18,090 nt of DNA from a virus. Its lineage: Duplodnaviria > Heunggongvirae > Uroviricota > Caudoviricetes. Of the stretch, positions 6,964 through 8,103 are shown in pieces (position 1 is the stretch's first letter; each line of letters starts with the position of its first letter). The position numbers and the translations under genes were made by a program. The stretch lies in IMG/VR virus record IMGVR_UViG_2537562191_000051; one strand, written 5' to 3'. The notes beneath the pieces are model-generated. The model saw only the letters and a program-made list of their open reading frames with translations, was not told where the DNA came from and did not search any database.

Positions 6964-7562
6964 GCAACCTCACTTCTGCTGTTTCGCAGTTTTTTAAGTT
7001 TCTGTTGATACTCCGCCTTGATGGCCCTGCACTCTTCGACAGTCCAGCGATAGCGGTTATGGTTTGATTCGATTTCCTCTACTGCTTCCTGCCCGATGCG
7101 GCTAATCAGTTCGACGCGATACGGAACGAGATTTCCGCTTTTGTGCTGGTTGCACACCACGCATTGCTTGTGAATATTGCGTTCATCAAATCGGAGTTGA
7201 GGTGCCGCAGCAGTTGTCCGGTAATGTCCGGCATCCCACTGAGCAGACGTGAGCGTTCCGCACGAGATACATGGTAAGTCGCGGTCTCTTTCTCTGATGA
7301 AGGCGTTTACGGCTTGTTGGGCTTGTTTAATCCAGTAACTGCGGGGCTTTAAGGCGAGTTTTCGAATCTTCAGTTTATCTTTCTGTTTCTGCTCCTCTCG
7401 TCGTAGTTTCTTCTCTGCTGCTTTTTCCGCTTTTTCGCGTTCTTTACTTCGTCGTTCGAGTGCTATCTTGGTTCCACAAATCTCATTACACCAATATTGA
7501 TTTTGATATTTTGGTATAAACCATTCATTGCAACATTTACATTTCCTTCGATAGATTCGCAT
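6960..7562 (-). CDS. ninG: NinG (Rap-family recombination-associated protein)
   Basis: [15 protein letters not shown]...[24 protein letters not shown]...CISCGTL...[11 protein letters not shown] matches the lambda NinG pattern (Cys clusters, basic central region). Start chosen at the internal Met (7562) rather than the ORF-track start (7622). Confidence 0.8.
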
Positions 7563-8103
7563 AAGTGCTCCTTTCGTTGCCGGAAAAATCACCGTAATAC
7601 TTATCTCGGGCTTCTTCAGCAACTAGTACCGCTAACTCCAGATCATCAAAGCATCCGAAGTGTTTACTCTTGCCATGGAATCCTAGCCTAACATTCCATT
7701 TTTTCTGTCGTTTGTGCCAAGTAACCCCTCTGCAACCTGATTTGCTATTCTTTCGGATCCTTATATTTCTTGAATTTTCTATTGGCAGGCATTCTCTTAA
7801 ATTTTCTGGCCTATTGTCGGTCCTAATTCCATTAACGTGGTCAATTTGACCAGCAGGCCAACGATTATGAGTTATGTAAAAAACTAAGACGTGAGTTTTA
7901 TATCTACGCCCATCTATCATGATCATTGAATAACCGTTGGAATCAAAAGTTCCAGCAACACTATTTAATGCTATCCTTCCCTGAGTGGGAACTTTCCATC
8001 TAAATACCCCGGTAGATTTATCGAAACTTAGTAACTCAAATATCCTTTTAACAGTTAAATCTTCTCTTTTACGGTTACATCGTCTTCGCGCTGGTTTAGC
8101 CAT
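7537..8103 (-). CDS. HNH endonuclease with C-terminal AP2 DNA-binding domain (homing-endonuclease-like)
   Basis: HNH region ..[38 protein letters not shown].. and AP2-like region ..[37 protein letters not shown]... Start at ATG 8103, preceded by GGAGGAAGAAGGCG. Confidence 0.75.

Follow-up and report, generated by a model that had tools for sequence, protein, structure and literature searches.

The window, by which we mean the whole stretch of 18,090 nucleotides analysed here, matches a defective lambdoid prophage of E. coli adjoining gyrA/yfaA. Strain RM9131 is 100% identical to it across a 1.6-kb query, and a similar copy is present in prophage Sp17 of strain Sakai. All relevant genes of the window are carried by the minus strand; on it an open reading frame for an HNH-AP2 endonuclease runs into the start of ninG, and a NinI phosphatase gene and then Q lie downstream of ninG. 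The features of the locus are listed here in window coordinates:

8117-10907, no strand assigned: AT-rich 2.8-kb moron splitting ninF, listed as context and lying outside the nuclease cassette
8096-8116, minus strand: 3′ end of ninF, last 21 nt (lambda/P22 type, ...EEEGDG and stop), by comparison with lambda
8075-8103, minus strand: captured ninG start, i.e. the ATG and first nine codons plus 2 nt (MAKPARRRC), in frame with the nuclease and identical to lambda ninG
7537-8103, minus strand: HNH-AP2 endonuclease ORF, 188 aa plus stop (ORF, Pfam and fold)
about 7783-7902, minus strand: HNH_3 domain of the nuclease (Pfam)
about 7591-7737, minus strand: AP2 domain of the nuclease (sub-threshold Pfam match plus fold)
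7479-8074, minus strand: foreign block, 596 nt, AT-rich, made up of the nuclease body and a substitute ninG 5′ end (lambda/P22 comparison)
7568-7573, minus strand: putative Shine-Dalgarno sequence AAGGAG, 5 nt upstream of the ATG at 7562 and within the coding tail of the nuclease (read from the sequence)
7479-7562, minus strand: substitute ninG 5′ end, codons 1-28, colinear with lambda codons 1-31
6960-7478, minus strand: lambda-type ninG body, 96.9% identical to lambda (lambda comparison and Pfam)

The surroundings of the cassette differ from lambda in several ways. Upstream, the moron has left only the ends of ninF in the window (the 5′ remnant comprises 49 nt, 10908-10956) as well as in the Stx1 phages SH2026Stx1 and AU6Stx1. 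It has no counterpart in ninF-type loci, ninF being intact in the prophages of E. coli MS 196-1 and Salmonella Infantis described below, and the loss of ninF to the moron is a secondary event. The moron has a GC content of ∼34% and holds two opposite-strand ORFs (8597-9583 and 9622-10449, both on the plus strand), neither of which has a Pfam match; at the same position SH2026Stx1 carries a single opposite-strand gene of 1773 nt. Just upstream of the nuclease, at 8298-8362, the hexanucleotide AAATAG is repeated 10.8 times in tandem. The matched span in other E. coli strains measures 1607, 1595, 1589, 1583 or 1577 nt, as compared to 1601 nt in the window, and since these lengths differ in steps of 6 nt the repeat behaves as a variable-number repeat. 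Where the moron is present, the nuclease frame is open further upstream to a GTG at 8184 (window 8103-8184), which explains the 215-aa product (P0002) obtained from some gene callers, and the annotation of SH2026Stx1 includes a chimeric 38-aa ORF ending in the ninF stop. Downstream, ninH is absent between ninG and ninI relative to lambda (6954-6963), and the ninG stop abuts the phosphatase gene, as it does in phages 434 and phi458; ninH is kept in other carriers of the cassette. Integrase and excisionase genes (11742-13008, plus strand) lie almost directly beside ninE (10953-11135, minus strand). The whole immunity and replication region is therefore missing and the prophage is a remnant, followed by chromosomal yfaA and gyrA (window 13626-18090).

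Junctions were placed by anchored comparison and by blastn against lambda, in which ninG occupies 42429-43043 of NC_001416 and encodes a product starting with MAKPARRRC. The nuclease has the same nine residues at its N-terminus. This agreement extends to the DNA: window 8116-8075 matches the end of ninF and the start of ninG in lambda at 40 of 42 nt, the final 30 nt being identical, and a chance resemblance of the two peptides was rejected on these grounds. The ninF stop of the window overlaps the ATG of the nuclease (ATGGCTAA), so that the coupled-start arrangement of ninF and ninG is kept. At the left junction the similarity to lambda is lost abruptly, after ...CGATGTAA and before CCGTAAAAG. 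At the right junction lambda identity is back at 7478 (TGTGGAACCAAG...) and persists at 96.9% through to the ninG stop. The block found between these two points replaces 64 nt of lambda, 42461-42524, which correspond to ninG codons 10-31. The nuclease part of the block has a GC content of 39.1% and the substitute 5′ end of 28.6%, as compared to 48.9% for the ninG body and 50.5% for the lambda 5′ end; this AT-richness points to a foreign origin of both halves together. In E. coli Z1323CEC0007 (L006, 3276-4504) the substitute ninG 5′ end is interrupted by an IS2 element after 48 nt. An alternative junction 48 nt into ninG was rejected, as the match ends there owing to this insertion.

The ninG ORF of the window extends from the ATG at 7562 to 6960 and overlaps the nuclease ORF by 26 nt. 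Its product of 200 aa (lambda NinG has 204 aa) matches the Pfam NinG profile with 279.5 bits over positions 5-192 of 193. The substitute 5′ end shows 56% nucleotide identity to lambda codons 1-31, and all four N-terminal cysteines are present in the window NinG (C8, C10/C11 ... C25, C29), colinear with lambda and with Salmonella phage Emek. The downstream gene thus encodes a complete, full-length NinG/Rap, and the start of ninG occurs twice at this locus. A sequence-only reading of the window had already recognized that lambda NinG begins like the nuclease and that the ninG frame restarts 26 nt before the nuclease stop, and on both counts it was right. It had further proposed a simple insertion that truncates ninG, with NinG re-initiating at an internal Met. 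The nine ninG codons carried by the nuclease and the downstream, overlapping start would suit such an event. However, the downstream Met aligns with the start Met of lambda NinG, the profile is covered almost from its first position, the cysteines are retained and lambda codons 10-31 are replaced rather than kept. The colinear alignment thus refutes re-initiation at an internal Met, and we give the simple insertion next to no credence. What holds of the proposal is an invasion of ninG relative to the nuclease-free loci of lambda and P22; the event itself is a replacement of 64 nt by 596 nt including a foreign ninG 5′ end, not a simple insertion.

The alignment of ninG loci with and without the nuclease, which the same reading had recommended, located the insertion point right after codon 9. 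In E. coli MS 196-1 the gene order is ninB-ninE-ninF-HNH-ninG-ninH-ninI-Q, and the aligned stretches of both flanks share 93-94% identity with lambda; the block is the sole large difference and starts directly after ninG codon 9. In the Salmonella Infantis prophage the block lies within a P22-type nin region (ninB-D-E-X-F-HNH-ninG-ninH-...-Q), with P22-specific SNPs abutting it on the right and a P22-type ninF on the left. The nine captured codons are lambda-type also in this prophage (ACC and TGTAA, where P22 has ATC and TGCAA). The junctions in the comparison of lambda with MS 196-1 and in that of P22 with S. Infantis are identical: genomes that are homologous in other respects differ cleanly in the presence or absence of the block at a single defined site. 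No ancestral, independent HNH gene with an unrelated start was encountered in this comparison. Several nuclease genes populate the MS 196-1 prophage, as a second HNH/AP2 gene pair, which is broken, lies upstream of ninB and a further HNH-motif gene downstream of Q (listed coordinates in L005: 1527-1970 and 5716-6216).

A third natural version of the NinG N-terminus, MRKVRRRCKNEECREWF, is found in phage Emek and marks the N-terminus as a variable region of the protein. This nuclease-free ninG 5′ allele (L004, 1465-1560) is ∼60% identical to both others and rejoins the shared ninG sequence near the same codon, ∼29-32. The return point at this codon may represent a recurrent recombination joint or the relic of an earlier invasion.

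The nuclease is a separate ORF with its own stop, and ninG has its own start in a different frame. Pfam HNH_3 matches residues 68-107 of the nuclease with 42.7 bits (cut-off 24.8), and AP2 matches residues 123-171 with 22.2 bits, which is under the cut-off of 33.3 (E = 1.8e-4). The AlphaFold (AF2) model has a pLDDT of 83.5 and shows strands at residues 127-152 followed by a helix at 155-173, while residues 1-11 (pLDDT below 50) and 181-188 are disordered. The top PDB match in Foldseek was I-HmuI (1u3e), with a probability of 1.00, a weak E-value of 7e-3, a TM-score of 0.34-0.37 and 17% sequence identity, in keeping with the beta-beta-alpha-metal fold of HNH (His-Me finger) nucleases. AP2 GCC-box domains came next: AtERF1 (1gcc) was aligned with an rmsd of 1.3 Å over 51 columns (probability 1.00), and TEM1 and ERF96 were further AP2 matches. 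E-values in Foldseek were weak. A PDB sequence search with the nuclease returned an AP2 match only, which was insignificant; the AP2 fold is supported by the structure match of the predicted model. These results bear out the assignment of 7537-8103, stop included, as an ORF combining HNH and AP2 domains.

The residues D88, H89, N101 and N110 (DH...N...N), with the catalytic His and the metal-binding Asn positions among them, are invariant across an alignment with 15 homologs. Relatives of the nuclease were found in 3059 phage records, many of them annotated as homing endonucleases. An exhaustive HMMER search yielded over 100 000 homologs with identities of 48% at most, and the homolog searches gave no relative between 99% and 48% identity. 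Homologs start ∼5-10 residues before the motif LTxxxLRxLLxYDPxTGVFRWK and end near nuclease residue 175-180, and their alignments begin at about residue 10-20 of the nuclease. Compared with them the nuclease is longer by about nine residues at the N-terminus (the NinG graft) and by about eleven unstructured residues at the C-terminus, where it reads through the ribosome-binding site and start of ninG. The in-frame fusion, the lack of the first ∼10 residues in homologs and the disorder of residues 1-11 agree with the earlier suggestion that the nuclease keeps the translation start of ninG for itself. The nuclease ORF is intact in 48 of 49 loci, and its polymorphisms comprise 10 synonymous and 12 non-synonymous changes (pN/pS ∼0.32, binomial p = 0.009). 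Decay was observed in one IMG/VR copy (L009), in which a 1-nt deletion causes a frameshift.

In order to survey the distribution of the cassette, IMG/VR was scanned with the exact pattern of the substitute ninG 5′ end, which gave 56 contigs, 55 of them informative. The nuclease was present upstream of the substitute 5′ end in 55 of 55 informative loci and the exact left-junction sequence in all but one; the context further upstream was the moron or one of several ninF variants. As all copies share one left junction, the fusion probably arose once. Among 49 alignable loci, pairs differed on average by 0.43% over the nuclease body and by 0.14% over the substitute 5′ end, compared to 3.2% for the ninG body, 5.2% for the left flank of 42 nt and more than 40% further out. 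The interval of low diversity, 8075-7476, corresponds to what lambda lacks, and common polymorphisms restart 8 nt beyond its right end and 31 nt beyond its left end; the diversity of the block is lower than that of the ninG sequence touching it by a factor of 6-20. Moron-type loci (n = 33) and ninF-type loci (n = 16) each show the same contrast when taken separately, the latter having 13 flank haplotypes and one haplotype of the substitute 5′ end. In the moron-type group no steady increase of diversity with distance is seen, and there is accordingly no sign of long co-conversion tracts. Block carriers belong to both E. coli and Salmonella, and the backgrounds are lambda-like, P22-like, Stx1-phage and remnant-prophage, with the adjacent ninG differing by 2-4%. 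Their flank alleles (e.g. T or C at 7470) are partly common to nuclease-free lambda, P22 and Emek. This pattern shows the block to be far younger than the sequence on either side of it.

In complete E. coli genomes the junction between the nuclease and the 5′ end was detected in 538 of 5426 (∼10%; a count of 536 is also given), in each case with at least 99% identity, a copy count that is inflated since many carriers are clonal EHEC lineages. The junction between the 5′ end and the ninG body was detected in 532, and the two counts thus give no surplus of substitute 5′ ends lacking the nuclease. Such a nuclease-free copy was found neither among the 55 informative IMG/VR loci nor in these junction counts. 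Lambda-type ninG without the nuclease occurs in a roughly equal number of complete E. coli genomes. Searches for a donor of the substitute 5′ end with a 40-aa query gave only partial E. coli NinG entries, and a peptide of 10 residues, run as a degenerate DNA pattern, had no match in 185 579 species-representative genomes.

We regard it as probable that the locus holds a free-standing cassette of the HNH-AP2 homing-endonuclease type that sits at the 5′ end of ninG (rap) and has captured the ninF/ninG start. At its left end the block continues the frame of ninG codons 1-9, which puts the translation start of the nuclease at the resident overlap of ninF stop and ninG start; the right end brings a Shine-Dalgarno sequence and a heterologous, colinear 5′ end, so a complete NinG is still encoded. 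The source of the block could be an unsampled, AT-richer phage in which the nuclease lay just upstream of a diverged ninG. The right joint would then have formed by homologous exchange in the ninG body and the left one by a single illegitimate in-frame join at ninG codon 9/10, after which the cassette would have been homologous to lambda/P22-type phages on both sides. In the proposed cycle the nuclease would nick or cut nuclease-free ninG of the lambda/P22 type at or near the replaced 64-nt segment, and recombinational repair off the cassette-bearing genome would copy the block in, i.e. homing. The substitute 5′ end would keep ninG functional and at the same time remove the recognition site, conferring self-immunity; the putative target segment is swapped in the carrier allele for the AT-rich, 56%-identical sequence. 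AP2 domains are reported to prefer GC-rich DNA (PMC10448857). Such a preference would fit the replaced segment (50% GC) as the target rather than its substitute (28.6%), although this is suggestive only. Spread by gene conversion is consistent with the population signature, which does not separate it from nuclease-independent recombination, and after the fusion the cassette could have spread by ordinary homologous recombination in the conserved nin genes. More tentative, and in our estimation somewhat on the doubtful side, is the stronger claim of a presently active homing element that has natural substrates including lambda and P22, captures their start and delivers a recoded, immunising 5′ end. 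If it is true, lambdoid phages superinfecting a cell with a carrier prophage (Stx1 phages and EHEC remnants included) would suffer conversion or damage at ninG.

The main rival to a homing-type cassette is nuclease-independent mosaic recombination, in which the nuclease is a passenger moron, acquired once illegitimately and then shuffled by homologous recombination in the nin region. It would have no part in its own spread and might be inactive or serve another role, for example in excluding competing phages. Mosaicism is plain to see in the nin region, with ninF split by a moron, ninH kept in some cases and missing in others, and Q of differing types, and a single left junction common to the copies is what this explanation leads one to expect. 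However, the joints hug the 596-bp block on both sides in independent backgrounds, the diversity of the block is far below that of adjoining ninG, the nuclease ORF has been kept intact at a low pN/pS and the protein comes from a family known for homing (PMC10448857); we therefore consider this explanation unlikely, though still deserving of attention. Much less can be said for a reverse polarity, with the nuclease-bearing state ancestral and the lambda/P22-type ninG derived from it by deletion of the nuclease. ATGTAA occurs both at the left junction and at the nuclease stop and could in principle mediate such a deletion, but its product would be a lambda-type head joined to substitute codons 10-28, and none of the 55 informative IMG/VR loci shows this hybrid. 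The junction counts from E. coli, the GC content that the lambda-type 5′ end shares with the rest of ninG, the AT-richness of the block and its youth relative to the flanks likewise speak against this polarity, which we judge extremely improbable. Only slightly better placed is a domesticated partner, an HNH-AP2 protein acting with NinG/Rap in recombination or regulating via its AP2 domain. The overlap and co-transcription of the nuclease with ninG would suit this role, and AP2 domains can be pure DNA binders (PMC10448857). Against it, most lambdoid ninG genes have no nuclease (including about half of the E. coli genomes with lambda-type ninG), the catalytic HNH residues are intact and there is no co-variation between the nuclease and the ninG body, so that we find it quite improbable.

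Homing endonucleases have mostly been studied in virulent phages (T4, T5, SPO1 and ICP1). The cassette in ninG adds a clean, population-supported candidate from temperate lambdoid phages; its carriers are ∼10% of complete E. coli genomes, Stx1-converting phages and a Salmonella prophage. With lambda and P22, the best-understood phages, as bearers of the predicted target, standard reagents suffice for a direct test of the hypothesis. The architecture illustrates how a selfish gene may enter a coding sequence without inactivating it, and for the mosaicism of the nin region it offers a concrete cause of one sharp recombination joint, at ninG codon ∼29-32. There is also a warning for annotation: genome records label the nuclease simply ‘HNH endonuclease’, while its first nine residues are NinG-derived. 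The literature searched for HNH and ninG contained no description of an HNH gene in ninG. If the cassette is an active homing element, start capture combined with a recoded substitute 5′ end would be a strategy without description in that literature.

I-HmuI nicks one DNA strand, and by analogy the ninG nuclease may nick rather than cut. This enzyme of Bacillus phage SPO1 (PDB 1U3E) is the best structural match to the nuclease half, but it is intron-encoded and uses NUMOD and helix-turn-helix modules for DNA binding, whereas the ninG nuclease has an AP2 domain instead. The combination of HNH and AP2 is described as a homing-endonuclease family in PMC10448857, which cites Magnani 2004. Its free-standing members (the ‘IPA-HNH’ genes of ICP1, PMC10448857, and the HNH_3 genes of T5-, T1- and T7-like phages) share with the ninG nuclease the N-terminal I-HmuI-like HNH_3 domain with the DH...N...N residues, the C-terminal AP2 domain, a length of ∼160-190 aa in an ORF of their own and a location beside or inside a conserved phage gene. 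In contrast to these genes of virulent phages, the ninG nuclease, at most 48% identical to any relative, resides in temperate lambdoid phages and prophages, borrows its first nine residues from the target and has a C-terminal tail overlapping the target's new start. The free-standing T4 endonuclease genes SegG and mobE are known for co-conversion of flanking sequence and for diverged flanks that protect the carrier (PMC2790892, PMC2988022). Like them the ninG cassette is an intron-less gene beside its target with presence/absence polymorphism between related phages, and it would resemble them also in the transfer of flanking sequence and in a diverged, protective flank. The T4 genes are intergenic and have their own starts, whereas the body of the ninG nuclease lies inside the region of the target's reading frame and shares its translation start. 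A free-standing HNH gene inside a coding sequence, with the function of the host gene retained, is also represented by mobE in nrdA of Aeromonas phage Aeh1, the ‘genes in pieces’ arrangement (PMC3045599). There nrdA is split into two polypeptides that reassemble, whereas ninG stays in one piece by virtue of its complete substitute 5′ end and only nine duplicated codons remain, on the nuclease. What is known at this locus is the HNH-AP2 family of homing endonucleases; what is unusual is its architecture in ninG.
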